Positions 57,846-64,000 are shown, counted from the first letter of the stretch. The stretch: DNA of 64,000 nucleotides from Candidatus Saccharimonadota bacterium (GCA_017480035.1 JAFVBJ010000003.1:298126-362125); one strand, 5' to 3'. A program made the numbers and translations. Notes: generated by a model from the sequence alone, not told the origin.

Positions 57846-59150
57846 ATGAAAAAATTTAATACATCCCCAATTTCTGGCATGCAAGAGCTGACTCCAGCTA
57901 AGCAGGCCATCTTTGACAAGCTTAAAAACGAGATTGCTGGGGTGTATCATTCTCACGGTTTTCTCTCGATTGAAACGCCAATCATTGATCGTACCGAAAT
58001 CCTACTTGCGAAAGCTGGCGGTGATACCGAGAAACAAATCTATAAAGTCGTGAAGACTGCCGAGACTGAGGGTGATGCGGACCAAGCACTCCGCTTCGAT
58101 CATACCGTCCCGCTCGCACGCTACGTCGTCGAACACGAAAACGACATCACTTTCCCATTTAAAGTCACTCAAATTGGCCGCAACTTCCGTGGTGAACGCG
58201 CCCAAAAAGGCCGTTTCCGCGAATTTTATCAACTCGACGTCGACGTAATCGGCCGCGAAAAACTTGCGCTCGCTTATGATGCTGAAGTTGTGAAAACAGC
58301 TTATGACGCGCTTAAAACTTTCATTAAACCGGAGATGAAAATTCGAATCAGCAACCGCAAAATTCTCTCCGGTCTTCTCCAAGAACTCGGTCTCGAAACA
58401 AAATCTGAAGACATTTTCAGTATTATCGACCACGCCGAAAAAGTCCCGAAAGAAAAGACGCTTTCCGCTTTCGAAGAAATCGGTCTTAGTAATTCCGAAA
58501 TCGAAAAACTCTCGAGCTTCATGGGAATTAATGGCACTCGTGAAACTGTCATCGAAAAGTTGAAAAATCTCGACATCAAAAACGAAATCTTCGCGCTCGG
58601 CGTCGAAGAACTTGACGAAGTTCTCGCTCTTCTCGAAAAACAAGGTTTGAAAGACACTGCGGTTGGCGACATGTTGATTATTCGTGGTCTCGATTATTAT
58701 ACCGGCTCAGTCTTTGAAACATTCCTCCCGGAATATCGTGAAATTGGCTCGATTTGTTCCGGCGGCCGCTACGAGAATCTCGCTTCGAACTACACCGAAA
58801 ATAAATTCCCGGGCGTCGGCATCTCGATTGGCTTAACTCGTCTTTTCTACGTTTTGAATGAGAATAATCTACTTGACGAAGTCTCCGAAAATCCAATCGA
58901 CCTCGTCTTGATTCCATTCTCCGAAAATGAATACGAATATACTTTCAATCTCGCCGAAAAACTTCGAAGCTCCGGCAAAAAAGTCGACATCAATCTTTCC
59001 GACAAAAAAGTTGGCGATAAATTCACCTACGCTGCAAAAATCGCGAAATTCGCGTCCGTGATTGGTGGAAATGAAGTTGAAACCGGCAATATTGAAGTAA
59101 AAAACCTCGAAACTGGCGAAAAACTTAAACTCGAAGACTATATTAGATAA
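57846..59150 (+). CDS. hisS: Histidine-tRNA ligase
   Basis: ISGMQE, IETPI, LRFDHTVPLARY, GERAQKGRFREFYQLDVD, RGLDYYTG, GGRYENL, GISIGLTR. Confidence 0.96.
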   Translation: MKKFNTSPISGMQELTPAKQAIFDKLKNEIAGVYHSHGFLSIETPIIDRTEILLAKAGGDTEKQIYKVVKTAETEGDADQALRFDHTVPLARYVVEHENDITFPFKVTQIGRNFRGERAQKGRFREFYQLDVDVIGREKLALAYDAEVVKTAYDALKTFIKPEMKIRISNRKILSGLLQELGLETKSEDIFSIIDHAEKVPKEKTLSAFEEIGLSNSEIEKLSSFMGINGTRETVIEKLKNLDIKNEIFALGVEELDEVLALLEKQGLKDTAVGDMLIIRGLDYYTGSVFETFLPEYREIGSICSGGRYENLASNYTENKFPGVGISIGLTRLFYVLNENNLLDEVSENPIDLVLIPFSENEYEYTFNLAEKLRSSGKKVDINLSDKKVGDKFTYAAKIAKFASVIGGNEVETGNIEVKNLETGEKLKLEDYIR

Positions 59151-60223
59151 TGGAAAATATCAATTCATACATCGCTTGTCAGAAAAAGCGAGTCTCTATT
59201 TTTAACCCAATAAACGACGTCGACGCGATGATTCTCGCCCGCTTTTCCTATCTCCCATTTCATAAAATTAAGTTAGGGGAGAGGGAAACTATCGGCTCAA
59301 TTTGCCAAAAAATGACAGAAAAACTCAAAGTCGAGGATTTTGCTTGGCCGGATGATTATGAATATGTCCAGAAAATGTTCGTCTCAAAACGTTTCAAAAA
59401 TATGCGCGTGACCGATTATGTCCGCAAAAACTCAGAGAAAATCGAACGCCAATTTTCTGCCGTCACTATCCACACTACCTACTACGAAATGTACCTTAGT
59501 TTTTTCGGTACAGATGATACGCTTGTCGGCTGGAAAGAAGATTTTAATCTTGCTTTTCTCGATGTCATTCCGGCCCAAAAAGCTGGCGCAGAATATCTCG
59601 CCGCAGTACACCGAAAATATCCCACAAAATTACTTCGTCTCGGCGGTCATTCAAAAGGTGGAAATATCGCGATGTATTCCGCAATCACCGCGAAAGATTC
59701 ATGGCAACGTCGCATGTTGAAAATCTATAATTTTGACGGCCCGGGACTCCGCAAGGGAACTGCCGCACTCGACACTGGCTCCGAAAAAGTTCTCCGCAAA
59801 ATCCGCAGCTTCATTCCGCAAGGTTCGGTTATCGGCCGCCTTTTCGAACACAAAGAAAAAGTCCGCGTCGTGAAATCTGTCGGGAATAATCTCTATCAGC
59901 ACGACCTCTACACTTGGCAGATTAGTGGCAAAAACATCGTTCCGTCCTCAACCACAAAAGCTTCCGACCTTGCCGACAAAACCATCACGAATTGGCTCGA
60001 ATCTGCCTCGAAAGAAGACCAAAAAATCTTCATCAACTCGATTTTCAAAGTTTTTGCTTCCGCAAACGTCAATACTCCGCTCGAACTAAAAGCTAATTTC
60101 TTAAAATTCACCCCGACTTTATTGAAAGCTTATCGTAGCCTCCCGAAAGAACAGCGCAAAGTCATCATGGAAATCTGGAAAAAACTCGCCATCTCTTTCA
60201 TGAAAGCTAGGAAGGAAAAATAA
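59150..60223 (+). CDS. DUF2974 (Mbeg1-like) alpha/beta-hydrolase, lipase-like
   Basis: FSAVT, FFGTDDTLVGWKEDF, GGHSKGGNIA (GxSxG), FDGPG, HDLYTW. Confidence 0.82.
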   Translation: MENINSYIACQKKRVSIFNPINDVDAMILARFSYLPFHKIKLGERETIGSICQKMTEKLKVEDFAWPDDYEYVQKMFVSKRFKNMRVTDYVRKNSEKIERQFSAVTIHTTYYEMYLSFFGTDDTLVGWKEDFNLAFLDVIPAQKAGAEYLAAVHRKYPTKLLRLGGHSKGGNIAMYSAITAKDSWQRRMLKIYNFDGPGLRKGTAALDTGSEKVLRKIRSFIPQGSVIGRLFEHKEKVRVVKSVGNNLYQHDLYTWQISGKNIVPSSTTKASDLADKTITNWLESASKEDQKIFINSIFKVFASANVNTPLELKANFLKFTPTLLKAYRSLPKEQRKVIMEIWKKLAISFMKARKEK

Positions 60224-60861
60224 TGTCAACTCGCAAATTTGAGCTCGACCAGCATTTCTTAAAATCTCCGAAACTTGCTTTGATGTTGATTGGTCATAGT
60301 AATATTCGAAAAAACGATACTGTCGTCGAAATTGGTGCTGGCTCTGGCGTCATCACAACCGCACTCAGCAAGCGCTGCAAAAAAGTCATCGCAATCGAAC
60401 CGGACCACGAAACTGCTGAAAAACTTCGCGAAAATCTCCGGAAATTCGGCAGTAAAAACGTCGAGATTGTCGAAAAAGATTTTCGTGATGTGAAATTTCC
60501 GTCCGAACCATACAAAATCTTTGCGAACCCTCCCTTTCGCTATTCTTCTGAAATTTTCTACAAACTCTTAAATCTCGAAAATCAGGGCGGTAAAATCGTC
60601 AAAAAACAGGGAGAATGTTGTAATTTTGACAACACTCTGCCAAAATCAATCTACCTCATTCTTCAGAAAAATCTTGCTCTGAAACTTATTCAAACGGATC
60701 GCCATTATACTTCCCAGCTAGGGTATCTTCTCCAGGAAAAATACACTACGAAAATCCGCTTTCCTCTTCGAAAAACGGATTTCACTCCTCCTCCAGCTGT
60801 TGATACGGTGCTTTTTGAAGCGAAGCTTATTTCAACCCAGCCTCAAGATAATAAGTCTTGA
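60223..60861 (+). CDS. Erm/KsgA-family rRNA adenine N6-methyltransferase, second and shorter paralog
   Basis: LDQHFL, VVEIGAGSGVIT, AIEPD, KIFANPPF, DFTPPPAVDT. Confidence 0.8.
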   Translation: MSTRKFELDQHFLKSPKLALMLIGHSNIRKNDTVVEIGAGSGVITTALSKRCKKVIAIEPDHETAEKLRENLRKFGSKNVEIVEKDFRDVKFPSEPYKIFANPPFRYSSEIFYKLLNLENQGGKIVKKQGECCNFDNTLPKSIYLILQKNLALKLIQTDRHYTSQLGYLLQEKYTTKIRFPLRKTDFTPPPAVDTVLFEAKLISTQPQDNKS

Positions 60862-61576
60862 CTTGGTCCCAGCCCCAGCTCGTGTCGAAGCCGGTCGTCT
60901 CAAGCCCGCCGAATTTGAAGTATGGCATCCCGGACGTCCCCGATTTTTCCATAATTTTTGCAGCTTTTTTCGTGTTTTCTCGTACATGCTCGAGCTGTGA
61001 ATGATTCTTATAACAGTCCTTAAACGAGTCGCCTAGCCCGACTTCGTATCCAATCTCAAGCCAGTAATCTGCGGTCATTCCTTCGATTTTCGGCGCTGTT
61101 TTTGAGTTTCCGATGCCTTTTGAATGGTAATCTTCGTTGAGTGATGTCATTGTATTGTGATAATATTCCCAGAATTTTCCTTCTTCCGTCGCACAGAGCG
61201 TTGCTTCTGCCGCCTGTTCGGATTTTGCGCCCGCCTCACCGTATTCATTCAAGAAATCCGTGATTCTCATCTCATAGACCACGTCATTATCTTTGAGCCA
61301 CTGTTCAAATTCGTCTTGATGCGACATAATTGCGCGCGAGAAATAATCACAATACGGACACATAATATCTGTCGTCATGACATAATGGTTCTTCGCGTCT
61401 TTATTCCCGAGAATTGTTCTTTCGTCCCAAATCGCGTTCAAATCGTCGCTCTTTGGTGTTCCAATCACAATTAGCGAAATAATCGCAATCGCAATCAAAA
61501 CTAGCACAATCACGCGAATCACAACTCCTACCGCGCCGTTTCCGCCGCCAATTTTTTCGTAATCTGAATCGTTCAT
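60827..61576 (-). CDS. Membrane-anchored DsbA/thioredoxin-fold oxidoreductase
   Basis: N-terminal TM; LGNKDAK, DIMCPYC, SGMPYF cis-Pro loop. Confidence 0.82.
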   Translation of the reverse strand: MNDSDYEKIGGGNGAVGVVIRVIVLVLIAIAIISLIVIGTPKSDDLNAIWDERTILGNKDAKNHYVMTTDIMCPYCDYFSRAIMSHQDEFEQWLKDNDVVYEMRITDFLNEYGEAGAKSEQAAEATLCATEEGKFWEYYHNTMTSLNEDYHSKGIGNSKTAPKIEGMTADYWLEIGYEVGLGDSFKDCYKNHSQLEHVRENTKKAAKIMEKSGTSGMPYFKFGGLETTGFDTSWGWDQVKTYYLEAGLK

Positions 61577-62184
61577 TTTTTGCTTCCTTTCTTTCTAAAT
61601 TCCTCAGATTTTATTATTGCATACGTCTCAAAACCAACTTTTTTCAGTGCAAATAGCGCTATTAAAATCGAAAGGATTGTTAGTACCCAACTCACCGTTC
61701 CCGCAATCGCCATCCCAGAGCTTCCGGCAATCGAGATGATGATTGGTGCTAGAATCGTCGTTCCGCAAGTCGGGCAACCCGAGCCAAGCACAATCAGACC
61801 TGTGATAATCCCAGCATTCTGGAGATTCGCGGTATCTTTTCGATATTTATAAACATAAACCACCAGCCCAATCAGCGTCGATTGTAAAATTGTCACGAGA
61901 AAGATAAATAGAAAGTCAGAAAACTCTCGATTCACTCCAAAAGTGCCGAGAAAAGCGTTGAAAAGCAGGGAAATTTTATCGAAAAATCCTACTCTCATCA
62001 AAATTCCGAAGCTTGCGCCGCCAGAAGCAAGTAAATTCAGCAACGTCCCGAAGAACACGAAAGCAATCAAAAAGGTGATCACGAAGCGTTTTTTGCGAGT
62101 CGCAAGCAAAACTCCATAAAACGCAAGCTTGAATTCATCAAGCCACCTCGAGAGCTTTGAATAAATTTTCTTACCTCCAGCCAT
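61573..62184 (-). CDS. Four-TM membrane protein with a CxxC motif
   Basis: Start ATG 62184 after TGATATACT; LGSGCPTCGTTIL; 4-nt overlap with the dsbA-like gene. Confidence 0.75.
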   Translation of the reverse strand: MAGGKKIYSKLSRWLDEFKLAFYGVLLATRKKRFVITFLIAFVFFGTLLNLLASGGASFGILMRVGFFDKISLLFNAFLGTFGVNREFSDFLFIFLVTILQSTLIGLVVYVYKYRKDTANLQNAGIITGLIVLGSGCPTCGTTILAPIIISIAGSSGMAIAGTVSWVLTILSILIALFALKKVGFETYAIIKSEEFRKKGSKK

Positions 62185-62323
62185 ATATATAAGTATATCA
62201 TGAAAAAACGCTAGGAATATAAAATCGTCGAAAAATTGAATTACCCCAGCAAAACCGAACAAAAATTTTCGAAACCGAACGAAAAACGCTCATGCGATAA
62301 CATAAAAAAACTAAAAATCAATA

Positions 62324-62351
62324 TTGACAATCATTTTGCTCGTGCTAAAAT
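62324..62351 (+). promoter_or_regulatory. Sigma70 promoter with extended -10 and A-rich upstream tract
   Basis: TTGACA 62324-62329, TGC-TAAAAT 62343-62351. Confidence 0.75.
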
Positions 62352-62357
62352 TAAAGT

Positions 62358-62495
62358 AAGATTTGAGCGTTGTTGAGAGAAGCTCGAATCGAAAAATCCG
62401 GGTGGAGTGTGAAGTTAATTTGGCTAATTGCTATGAACTAGCAACCACCTAGAAATTAACTTGAAAAAGAAATACGCCAATCAAGGCGTATTTTT
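62358..62495 (+). ncRNA. Candidate ~138-nt structured small RNA
   Basis: Lies between a promoter and a terminator; two hairpins; no ORF. Confidence 0.5.
62470..62495 (+). terminator. Intrinsic terminator
   Basis: AAATACGCC/GGCGTATTT plus T tract. Confidence 0.8.
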
Positions 62496-62610
62496 ATAGC
62501 AGTTTCGCTGAAAATATGATAAAATAAGTCTACGGTGCTGTAGGCAGAAGCCTTCATCGCCGGCATTCGCAAAAGATGCCAAAGCAAACTTTGTCACCCT
62601 TTGCTCATTT

Positions 62611-62684
62611 GGCGCTGTGGCGGAGTGGTTACGCAGAGGTCTGCAAAACCTTGTACACCGGTTCAATTCCGGTCGGCGCCTCCA
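62611..62684 (+). tRNA. tRNA-Cys(GCA)
   Basis: GGCGCTG/CGGCGCC acceptor, U73, GAGGT-CT GCA AA-ACCTT, CCA. Confidence 0.95.
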
Positions 62685-62764
62685 CGACGAATGAAAGCAA
62701 GCTTTCTTCGTCGTGTTCGGCACCTTGATTGCCTAACGGTAAAACGGCGCCTCCAAATTTATTA

Positions 62765-62849
62765 GCCCTGGTGGCGGAATTGGTATACGCGTTCGACTTA
62801 AAATCGAATGGAGAAATCCATATGGGTTCAAGTCCCATCCGGGGCACCA
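62765..62849 (+). tRNA. tRNA-Leu(TAA)
   Basis: GCCCTGG/CCGGGGC acceptor, TTCGA-CT TAA AA-TCGAA, CCA. Confidence 0.95.
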
Positions 62850-62939
62850 CTGGTACGACCCGCACCATCGCGGTGAAAACATTAAAAGAAAAATAGCTTG
62901 AAATATCATCAAAATTTGTTATAATAAACATACATTCAT

Positions 62940-63016
62940 GCGAATGTAGCTCAGTTGTTTAGAGCGCTTCCTTGCCAAGGAAGAGGTCGAGAGTTAGAGT
63001 CTCTTCATTCGCACCA
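62940..63016 (+). tRNA. tRNA-Gly(GCC) with U19/A56 and A73
   Basis: GCGAATG/CATTCGC acceptor, CTTCC-TT GCC AA-GGAAG, T-loop TTAGAGT, CCA. Confidence 0.92.
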
Positions 63017-63060
63017 CTAAGTGCCGGTTGACCCCCCTCAGCCGGCACTTAGTGGTTTTA
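63013..63060 (+). terminator. Long hairpin terminator overlapping the tRNA-Gly ACCA end
   Basis: ACCACTAAGTGCCGGTTGA/TCAGCCGGCACTTAGTGGT followed by TTT. Confidence 0.75.
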
Positions 63061-63128
63061 GGCCTAAAAAACTATCGATTTTTTTGCATAAGTTTGATAT
63101 AATAGATACATAATTAAAAGGAGATAAA

Positions 63129-63725
63129 ATGTCAACTGGGACAATCATTCTCATCGTAGTCATCGCAGTCGTTGTACTTCTGCTCTTGATCGTGATGGGC
63201 TCATATAACGGATTAGTAAAACTTAACGAACGCGTCGAGGAAGCTTGGTCTGACATCACGGTCCAATTAAAGCGCCGTGCCGACCTCATCCCAAACCTCG
63301 TCGAAACCGTCAAGGGCTACACTAAACACGAAAACGAAGCTATTAAAATGGTTTCCGAAGCTCGCGCAAAAATGATGGGCGCTCGCTCGGTTTCACAAAC
63401 TGCTGAAGCTGATAAAAGCTTCATGGGCGCACTTTCGCGTATCATGGCCGTCTCTGAATCATACCCAGAGCTCAAAGCCGATGCAAACTTCCGCCAACTC
63501 ACCGAAGAGTTGACCGACACCGAGGACAAAGTCCAAGCCGCTCGTCGTTTCTACAACGCTGGTGTTAAGGAATTCAACACAAAGACGAAAGTCTTCCCAA
63601 CAGTCCTCATCAACAACATGTTCCTTCACTTCAAACAACGCGAATATTACGAGGTTGACGAAGAAGAAGCAAAACGCATCGACAAAGCTCCAACTGTCAG
63701 CTTTGACGACAAGAAAGAGAAATAA
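63129..63725 (+). CDS. lemA: LemA family protein
   Basis: SYNGLV, EAWSDITVQLKRRADLIPNLVETVKGY, ESYPELKA, ARRFYN. Confidence 0.95.
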   Translation: MSTGTIILIVVIAVVVLLLLIVMGSYNGLVKLNERVEEAWSDITVQLKRRADLIPNLVETVKGYTKHENEAIKMVSEARAKMMGARSVSQTAEADKSFMGALSRIMAVSESYPELKADANFRQLTEELTDTEDKVQAARRFYNAGVKEFNTKTKVFPTVLINNMFLHFKQREYYEVDEEEAKRIDKAPTVSFDDKKEK

Positions 63726-63730
63726 ATCGC

Positions 63731-64000
63731 ATGTACAAGCAAATCGCAGCCAACAAACGCAACACTGTTATCATCATGATTGGATTCGTGATGCTAATCT
63801 CTGCTATTGGCTGCGCTTTTGCTTATGCTTTTAACGACTGGTATATCACAGTTTATGTGCTAGTCGTTAGCAGCATTTATGCTTTAATACAATATTTCGC
63901 CTCGACGAAACTCGCTGTTGCGATGACTGGCGCGAAAAAAATCGACAAAAAGGATAATAAACGCCTCTTTACTATCGTTGAAAATCTCGCGATTACCGCC
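63731..64000 (+). CDS. htpX: M48 zinc metalloprotease HtpX (3'-partial)
   Basis: MYKQIAANKRNT...TM helices...TIVENLAI directly after lemA; not in the ORF track because it runs off the window. Confidence 0.85.
   Translation, partial: MYKQIAANKRNTVIIMIGFVMLISAIGCAFAYAFNDWYITVYVLVVSSIYALIQYFASTKLAVAMTGAKKIDKKDNKRLFTIVENLAITA

Follow-up and report, generated by a model that had tools for sequence, protein, structure and literature searches.

A candidate small RNA gene of Candidatus Nanosyncoccus with conserved complementarity to the 5' leader of pre-tRNA-Arg(GCG)

Toward the end of a 64,000-nucleotide (nt) stretch of DNA from a Candidatus Saccharimonadota bacterium (GCA_017480035.1 JAFVBJ010000003.1:298126-362125, hereafter the window), an initial annotation had marked positions 62324-62495 as an RNA gene, and had read it as either a novel small RNA (sRNA) or a conformational switch upstream of a tRNA cluster. 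What kind of RNA would this locus produce, and on what would that RNA act? Judging from its sequence and from those of its relatives, the locus looks like an independent, uncatalogued gene for a non-coding RNA of ~140 nt, specific to Candidatus Nanosyncoccus (Saccharibacteria). The invariant tail of this RNA family, CCACCUAGAAAUU, is the perfect complement of a block in the 5' leader of pre-tRNA-Arg(GCG) that is unpaired and just as invariant. We think it probable that the RNA works in trans, as an antisense sRNA that targets this leader by base pairing.

The sRNA gene and its fold

Every sequence element named in the initial annotation is present at its position, and the two signals that would delimit a transcript are conserved across the family. 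The proposed promoter, TTGACA with an extended -10, scores 11/12 against the consensus, with the TG extension also present (TGc-TAAAAT, 62343-62351), and TTGAC[ATG]-N16-(TG)-TAAAAT is found in 79/79 distinct members. The terminator that had been assigned to the locus, a hairpin followed by a T run at 62470-62495, has a counterpart downstream of 71 of these 79 members. We placed the 5' end of the RNA 6-8 nt past the -10 element and its 3' end at the T run of the terminator. The block AAAAATCAATA that precedes the promoter is also conserved and may be an UP-like element or an operator, and among the promoter contexts of the window's genome (G000; 0.77 Mb in 3 contigs) the sRNA locus alone has the combination ATCAATATTGAC. 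No open reading frame (ORF) in the body of the sRNA reaches 60 aa, and none of the shorter frames is conserved among the members of the family.

The + strand folds with a predicted energy of -44.3 kcal/mol in RNAfold, compared with -24.7 +/- 3.2 kcal/mol for dinucleotide shuffles (z = -6.1). Because the - strand folds about equally well (z = -6.4), the strand was not chosen by folding energy alone; it was set by the promoter and terminator and by the conserved helices, whose many G-U pairs would be A-C on the other strand. The terminator hairpin is also listed on the opposite strand in a consensus scan, and is thus bidirectional in shape.

With BLASTN, the sRNA gives partial matches that are confined to genomes of the same genus, and the oriented homologues share a common layout of promoter, GUUGAGAG-loop hairpin, GGGUGG, CCACCUAGAAAU, and terminator. 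A pattern scan over one genome per prokaryote species returned 79 loci, ~75 of them in genomes named Candidatus Saccharibacteria or Candidatus Nanosyncoccus, the latter a genus made up mostly of ruminant-gut metagenome-assembled genomes (MAGs); the loci come chiefly from the gut of sheep, goat, deer, buffalo, and yak. Four pattern loci in other phyla (Domibacillus, Verrucomicrobia, Erysipelotrichaceae, and Clostridiaceae) give no match to the covariance model R2 and are attributed to chance. This model and a second one, R1, both align to 62357-62463 of the window, and the E-values of the two models are rough. R2 has matches in at least 130 of 201 Candidatus Nanosyncoccus genomes, nearly always as one copy. 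When R1 was run on the 95 genera of the family, no match was obtained in the 94 other genera, and R2 likewise gave none in the 216 other genera of an order-level sample (301 genomes, 217 genera).

As modelled, the fold of the sRNA is a covarying 5' hairpin (P1), a 3' hairpin domain closed by GGUGG:CCACC (P3), an unpaired UAGAAAUU, and the terminator. Plain MAFFT and RNAalifold on the full-length RNAs gave a poor alignment from which P1 alone was recovered, and R1 and R2 were used instead. P1, which is Stem 1 of the initial annotation, covaries strongly: 90.5% of its cells are paired, compared with 71.9% in shuffles and 18-52% in slid controls, and both sides have changed in 8/9 pairs. The invariant GUUGAGAG (62372-62379) lies at the end of its 13-nt loop, and GTTGAGA shows no variation in alignments A1 and A2. 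The P3 helix (62401-62405 / 62445-62449) occurs in nearly all members, with covarying variants GGUGA:UCACC in several clades and GGUAG:CUACC once, plus wobble intermediates. Inside P3, the long forms of the RNA carry GAGUGU:AUAUUY and a small AGUUA-UUU-UGGCU hairpin, and the short forms have a simple loop in place of this module. The small hairpin of the window (P5) recurs in constrained folds of 42 members and is 87.5% paired in the R2 alignment, with both-side changes in 5/5 pairs. Over the full R2 model (80 sequences), 85.2% of positions are paired against 73.3% in shuffles, 20/26 pairs are changed on both sides, and 0/500 shuffles equal it, in an alignment that was fitted to R2 and therefore leans toward the model. 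The initial annotation had suggested collecting homologues and looking for covariation; the homologues were found, and P1, P3, and P5 covary. Two elements are unpaired and essentially invariant, namely the GUUGAGAG loop and the tail UAGAAAU(U).

The number of copies and the length of the RNA vary at a few loci. Two copies are present in G338 (in tandem, C24:11127-11384), G264, and G364, and at locus L017 of G011, which R2 missed under strict filters, an insertion of ~85 nt lies between P1 and the GGGUGG strand.

The 3' half of the fold differs from that first drawn. Stem 2 of the initial annotation is not conserved: across 42 members its duplex energy is -2.67 for own pairs vs -2.56 for cross pairs (permutation p = 0.26), and the window alone reaches -8.5 kcal/mol. 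In our model it is an alternative pairing restricted to this lineage, formed in competition with P3 and P5, that would hide the tail. The TTGCTA/TAGCAA pairing described within it is present at 62428-62444, but it is specific to this genome, and the homologous position in other members is an internal loop that varies in length and sequence. The complementarity of GGTGG to CCACC, which had been taken for a possible pseudoknot contact, is a real, conserved, and covarying pairing, but one that RNAfold forms as a nested helix. An H-type pseudoknot needs two conserved crossing helices, and while GGUGG:CCACC is conserved, the crossing Stem 2 is not; a conserved pseudoknot is thus unsupported.

No family in Rfam 15 accounts for the sRNA. 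At the gathering score nothing was found for it in the whole window, and at E <= 1 a search of 58000-64000 returned three tRNAs and one chance match antisense to a tRNA, with nothing at the sRNA. Five other members, which represent all four subtypes, also gave no match at E <= 1. The initial annotation had judged by eye that tmRNA, RNase P, SRP, and a full T-box do not fit, and the Rfam search agrees with it. Its proposal of a novel stand-alone sRNA is supported by this result together with the conserved promoter and terminator, the covarying helices, and the mostly single-copy occurrence in one genus.

Complementarity to the leader of pre-tRNA-Arg(GCG)

When the sRNA was compared with the genome that carries it by short-word BLAST, a single antisense match was obtained, of 15/15 bases (blastn-short E = 0.08), at a site ~250 kb from the sRNA gene on the same contig. 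Because this site lies between a TTGAAA-N17-(TG)-TAAAAT promoter (TGATAAAAT-type) and tRNA-Arg(gcg) at 109425-109501, it is part of the 5' leader of the tRNA precursor. On the side of the sRNA, (C)ACCTAGAAA is invariant across the family. The corresponding 12-mer, AATTTCTAGGTG, is present in 86/121 genus genomes, with ~130 matches vs ~10 for a reversed control. We fetched tRNA-Arg loci from 30 genomes that had been picked for unusual sRNA tails, and recovered 25 gcg leaders. The leader element makes up 25 of the 30 fetched AATTTCTAGGTG loci, and the complementary block, lying between the promoter and tRNA-Arg(gcg), is found in 25/25 leaders from sRNA-bearing genomes.

The leader (G000:C3:109280-109501; loci L119-L175) is itself a conserved structured RNA with two covarying hairpins and an invariant 24-nt block, and in Candidatus Nanosyncoccus it has no Rfam match. 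Its elements are, from 5' to 3', a TATAAT promoter, then hairpin a (GUC...GAU) and, past the block GCUCAUUUAAUUUCUAGGUGGAUG, hairpin b (GUGGAUGU...ACAUCCAC) ahead of tRNA-Arg; many species have another hairpin, with a CCCUAAAGG loop, between hairpin b and the tRNA. In a plain MAFFT alignment, hairpins a and b are 96.6% paired, compared with 89.4% in shuffles, and 4/6 pairs of hairpin a are changed on both sides. From this pairing, the sRNA-complementary block consists of a single-stranded linker and the 5' strand of hairpin b.

The tail and the leader are predicted to form a duplex in 26/26 genome pairs, with 11-19 contiguous pairs and energies of -14.8 to -26.0 kcal/mol. The mean energy is -20.12 kcal/mol for own pairs vs -19.56 kcal/mol for cross pairs (permutation p = 0.036, n = 26). 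In G026, where the sRNA has CACCCAGAAAUUA and the leader UAAUUUCUGGGUG, a U-to-C change on one side is matched by an A-to-G change on the other, and in three genomes an additional A in the tail (UAGAAAA) coincides with an additional U in the leader (UUUUCUAG; Fisher p = 0.014). When the complete RNAs are cofolded, the energy gained net of opening their internal structure is -11 to -18 kcal/mol, vs -4.5 to -7.6 kcal/mol with shuffled leaders. In these cofolds, CGGGUG of the sRNA also pairs with GCACCCG at the 5' end of the mature tRNA, which we regard as no more than a lead. By comparison of sequences, then, the complementarity between sRNA and leader is conserved, and it is compensated in a few cases.

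If the two RNAs pair physically, as we infer, the unpaired UAGAAAUU(AA) would be the toehold, landing on the single-stranded linker (UU)AAUUUCUA of the leader. Pairing would then extend into CCACC:GGUGG, which would open P3 of the sRNA as well as the hairpin of the leader adjoining the ribonuclease P (RNase P) site and give a duplex of 11-19 bp. The likeliest outcome would be an altered 5' maturation or stability of pre-tRNA-Arg. As the genome encodes RNase III, a duplex of this length could also be cut by that enzyme. A tentative and rather doubtful elaboration of the model would make the sRNA a dedicated riboregulator of a single tRNA, in which the tail docks on the leader and the freed (C)GGGUG captures the acceptor strand GCACCCG, gating maturation by RNase P.

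Comparison between genera points to the tRNA-Arg(GCG) leader as the older conserved element; its Nanosyncoccus variant and the sRNA are both confined to that genus. The Nanosyncoccus block was not found in the tRNA-Arg(gcg) leaders of 27 other genera of the family (loci L180-L207). Many other genera have a different conserved leader, in which a hairpin is followed by GAAAGCACCUUCUAGUUACA, a word found in 77/301 family genomes (32/95 genera) and almost always once per genome. The GAAAGCACCUUCUAGUUACA motif resembles the 5' end of the tRNA itself (GCACC..UAG). An antisense partner was sought for the ACCUUCUAGUUA leader type of these other genera, and none was found, the word being present essentially once per genome. 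The genus of G075 has an intermediate leader, CAUUUUUGGGUGG; its sole 13-mer complement in 1.04 of ~1.1 Mb lies inside a 203-aa ORF and is put down to chance, so that no partner was found there either.

Other candidate partners of the sRNA were set aside. The 3' untranslated region (UTR) of an Hsp20-like gene (G000:C3:144456-144505, where UUUUCACCUAGAAAGC is followed by a terminator) shares the ten-mer CACCUAGAAA with the sRNA tail in sense rather than antisense orientation, probably by chance. For neighbouring genes, including the YabE-like, DsbA-like, and KsgA genes, own, cross, and shuffled pairing with the sRNA are about equal.

Table 1 Coordinates of the sRNA locus and adjacent signals in the window.
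Feature	Position	Strand	Remarks
A-tract and TCAATA block AAAAATCAATA	62313-62323	+	Directly 5' of the -35; near-identical in 79 distinct members
Sigma-70-type promoter	62324-62351	+	TTGACA 62324-62329, 16-nt spacer with TG, TAAAAT 62346-62351
Predicted sRNA transcript, ~139 nt	62357-62495	+	Deduced from promoter and terminator
P1 hairpin GAUUUGAGC / GCUCGAAUC	62360-62390	+	9 bp; arms GATTTGAGC 62360-62368 and GCTCGAATC 62382-62390
P3 5' strand GGGUGG, Shine-Dalgarno-like	62400-62405	+	Pairs with 62445-62450 in the minimum-energy fold
Stem 2 of the initial annotation, AAGUUAAUUU / AAAUUAACUU	62412-62462	+	10 bp; AAGTTAATTT 62412-62421 and AAATTAACTT 62453-62462
P5 hairpin AGUUA-AUU-UGGCU	62413-62425	+	Apical module of the long-form 3' domain, conserved
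Hairpin UUGCUA-UGAAC-UAGCAA	62428-62444	+	TTGCTA 62428-62433, TAGCAA 62439-62444; insertion specific to this genome
Seed CCACCUAGAAAUUAA (P3 3' strand and unpaired tail)	62445-62459	+	Antisense to G000:C3:109350-109364
Intrinsic terminator AAAUACGCC-AAUCAA-GGCGUAUUU and U run	62470-62495	+	Hairpin 62470-62493; forms in the minimum-energy fold
Extended -10 TGATAAAAT of the downstream tRNA-Cys/Leu/Gly cluster	62517-62525	+	Separate from the sRNA

Alternative explanations and known RNA families

Several points weigh against antisense control of pre-tRNA-Arg. Because both blocks are nearly invariant, the gap between own and cross energies is small (0.56 kcal/mol) and comes from a few genomes. The extra A and the extra U do not always go together, as AAA tails occur opposite two UUUU leaders and a UUU leader opposite one AAAA tail. 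In a few genomes, e.g. G006, G024, G214, and G227, the leader block is present with no sRNA detected at E <= 1e-3, in searches with strict filters over incomplete assemblies. The GUUGAGAG loop, though invariant, has no partner in the model, and transcription of the sRNA gene is itself a prediction from its signals. The leader appears to have a role that is independent of the sRNA, because other genera keep a different conserved leader that lacks an antisense partner. Finally, the matched changes would also be expected if both loci were copies of a protein-bound double-stranded DNA motif.

This last possibility, in which the shared 13-15-mer is a DNA- or protein-level signal, one protein binds both loci, and the sRNA mainly binds or sequesters protein, is a serious rival, as the matched changes (those of G026 and AAAA/UUUU) keep a common double-stranded DNA word equally well. 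CTAG-centred words are typical of operator cores, sequences as nearly invariant as GUUGAGAG and the tail typically mark protein contacts, and an extra conserved block, TCAATA, is present at the sRNA promoter. However, an operator ~90-100 nt past the transcription start, partly in a covarying helix and just before a terminator, would be oddly placed. Each of the two RNAs is predicted to have the word in an accessible segment flanked by covarying hairpins, and its two copies always have opposite orientations relative to transcription. Additionally, one-sided transitions in the sRNA (UCACC, CUACC, and CCGCC) keep G-U pairing while they break the identity of the DNA word. Taking both sides together, we judge a common protein-binding motif to be improbable.

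Control could also run in the reverse direction, with the leader buffering the sRNA. In that case the 5' leader of tRNA-Arg, once released by RNase P, would be a sponge that titrates the sRNA, and the targets of the sRNA would be mRNAs reached through its CACCU... seed or its GUUGAGAG loop. The complementarity data, including the presence of the spacer block in the fetched leaders, are identical for the two models, and sponges made from tRNA spacers have a documented precedent in E. coli, where 3'ETS-leuZ acts on RyhB and RybB (bioRxiv 10.1101/2021.04.25.441314). As in that system, the seed of an sRNA with a transcription unit of its own has its complement in a conserved, non-tRNA segment of a precursor; unlike the 3' trailer of that system, the spacer here is a 5' leader, the duplex is long (11-19 bp), the bacterium belongs to the Candidate Phyla Radiation (CPR), and the precursor may be the target rather than the sponge. 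The seed holds CACCU, like the anti-Shine-Dalgarno sequence of 16S rRNA, in a genome that uses AAGGAGGUG-type ribosome-binding sites, and the second invariant loop suggests further partners. On the other hand, no other conserved complement of the 12-mer was seen in the genus, and the 5/30 fetched matches outside leaders are scattered coding sites in about the number that chance would give; the neighbouring genes show no excess pairing; and many genes look leaderless, which leaves fewer ribosome-binding-site targets. Because of the first two of these observations, control of pre-tRNA-Arg by the sRNA is the favoured direction, and we consider the sponge unlikely.

A cis-acting riboswitch or attenuator would concern the downstream genes, which are a tRNA-Cys/Leu/Gly cluster in the window (62611-63016, with LemA beyond it) and a YabE/Rpf-like gene elsewhere. 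The YabE/Rpf-like gene is next on the same strand at 37/61 loci, and cell-wall genes of this kind carry riboswitches in other phyla (the ydaO/cyclic di-AMP class). The downstream gene varies, however, being a same-strand ORF at 51, a convergent ORF at 16, and a tRNA at 8 of 79 loci. At ~18 of 76 loci the next gene is convergent. The sRNA ends in a strong terminator, after which a separate TATAAT stands ~6 nt before the ATG of the YabE/Rpf-like gene or before the tRNA leader; in the window, the tRNA cluster has the promoter of its own that the initial annotation had assigned to it. The terminator sequences vary freely, no alternative or antiterminator pairing with the body is conserved, and no riboswitch family matches. 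As the downstream gene varies and has a separate promoter past the terminator, we read the sRNA as a stand-alone gene and not a leader; the conformational switch that had been suggested upstream of the tRNA cluster finds no support in these features, and a cis-acting element is very improbable.

The connection to a tRNA, the GGGUGG strand that recalls the T-box core, and the occasional position upstream of tRNA genes invite a comparison with T-box leaders (RF00230). Unlike those leaders, the sRNA has no Stem I/specifier architecture and no competition between terminator and antiterminator, it does not lie upstream of aminoacyl-tRNA synthetase or amino-acid genes, and it would pair with the leader of a precursor instead of the anticodon or CCA end of a mature tRNA. 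We rejected a T-box riboswitch: RF00230 gives no match, the terminators are unrelated to the body, and the downstream genes are tRNAs, YabE-like, or convergent. K-turn, sarcin-ricin-like, and tracrRNA-like readings of the conserved motifs, which were made by eye only, were also rejected, as none fits all subtypes.

The most improbable explanation is that the sRNA is a highly divergent form of a universal RNA that is apparently missing from the genome. G000 has no match to the RNA of the signal recognition particle (SRP; RF00169), none to 6S RNA (RF00013), and no transfer-messenger RNA (tmRNA) by ARAGORN, and a housekeeping RNA could thus be hiding. However, the sRNA is not a hidden SRP RNA, because the SRP proteins are missing too (in G000, no SRP54/FtsY-type GTPase above the Pfam cut-off for PF00448 and no DTAGR motif), and SRP RNA is undetectable across the order while the sRNA is confined to one genus. 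A 6S RNA would be a rod of ~180 nt; the sRNA resembles it in being stand-alone, with a consensus promoter and, from that promoter, a probably high rate of transcription, but it is ~140 nt long, its consensus fold has two independent hairpin domains with no closing stem or central bubble, and it is limited to one genus. A tmRNA is likewise excluded, as the sRNA lacks both a tRNA-like domain and a tag ORF. As a separate observation, SRP RNA reaches the cut-off in 0/41 genomes (G000 and 40 order relatives), with one relative at 22.5 bits, below the 40-bit cut-off, and the signal-recognition-particle system seems to be absent from the lineage.

In its general organization the sRNA is closer to the Hfq-independent sRNAs of Gram-positive bacteria of the RsaE/RoxS type, with which it shares a strong promoter of its own, an intrinsic terminator, a narrow range, and a short, invariant, pyrimidine-rich seed that is anti-Shine-Dalgarno-like and partly exposed. 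It has no sequence or Rfam relationship to them. In contrast to that type, its seed lies 3' of the hairpin and is partly sequestered by an internal Shine-Dalgarno-like strand, and the sole conserved partner found is a tRNA leader rather than the ribosome-binding sites of mRNAs.

Genomic surroundings and implications

Upstream of the sRNA, and divergent from it, lie a gene for a DsbA-like thioredoxin and a 203-aa ORF with no Pfam match (60827-62184, - strand), an arrangement that is kept at 43/61 loci. Both genes look leaderless in relatives, with a TATAAT ~6 nt from the ATG. Intergenic regions, including 62220-62300 of the window and the region upstream of the sRNA at many loci, repeatedly contain the words AAAACCGAACA and AACAG(G/A)GGT. 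AACAGRGG has 73 sites in G000, several of them just 5' of start codons, and these words may be regulatory motifs or part of the context of ribosome-binding sites. Elsewhere in G000 there are ~35 near-identical strong promoters of the form TTGACx-N14-TGnTATAAT (e.g. C2:8937, C2:186905, C2:283340, and C3:161502). Many of these are followed by a hairpin and then by the recurrent word GCACAUUA just 5' of a Shine-Dalgarno sequence, which may be a common 5'-UTR module.

Small genomes such as those of Saccharibacteria and other CPR bacteria encode few transcription factors, and a literature search found no experimentally characterised regulatory RNA for either group. We also know of no description in bacteria of the control of a tRNA precursor by a trans-acting sRNA. 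A genus-wide sRNA for which a single conserved partner was found, in the leader of one tRNA precursor, offers a concrete and testable case of regulation between RNAs in this group. The analysis also brings out another unannotated element, the tRNA-Arg(GCG) leader, which has a conserved structure of its own in many genera of Saccharibacteria, and the covariance model could be used to annotate the sRNA gene in at least 130 MAG species. Antisense control of the leader would extend the theme of tRNA spacers and sRNAs, as seen with 3'ETS-leuZ of E. coli, to a 5' leader, and possibly to the direct control of tRNA maturation. If the gating of RNase P maturation is true, an ultra-small bacterium with an epibiotic way of life would control by it how much of one arginine isoacceptor is available.

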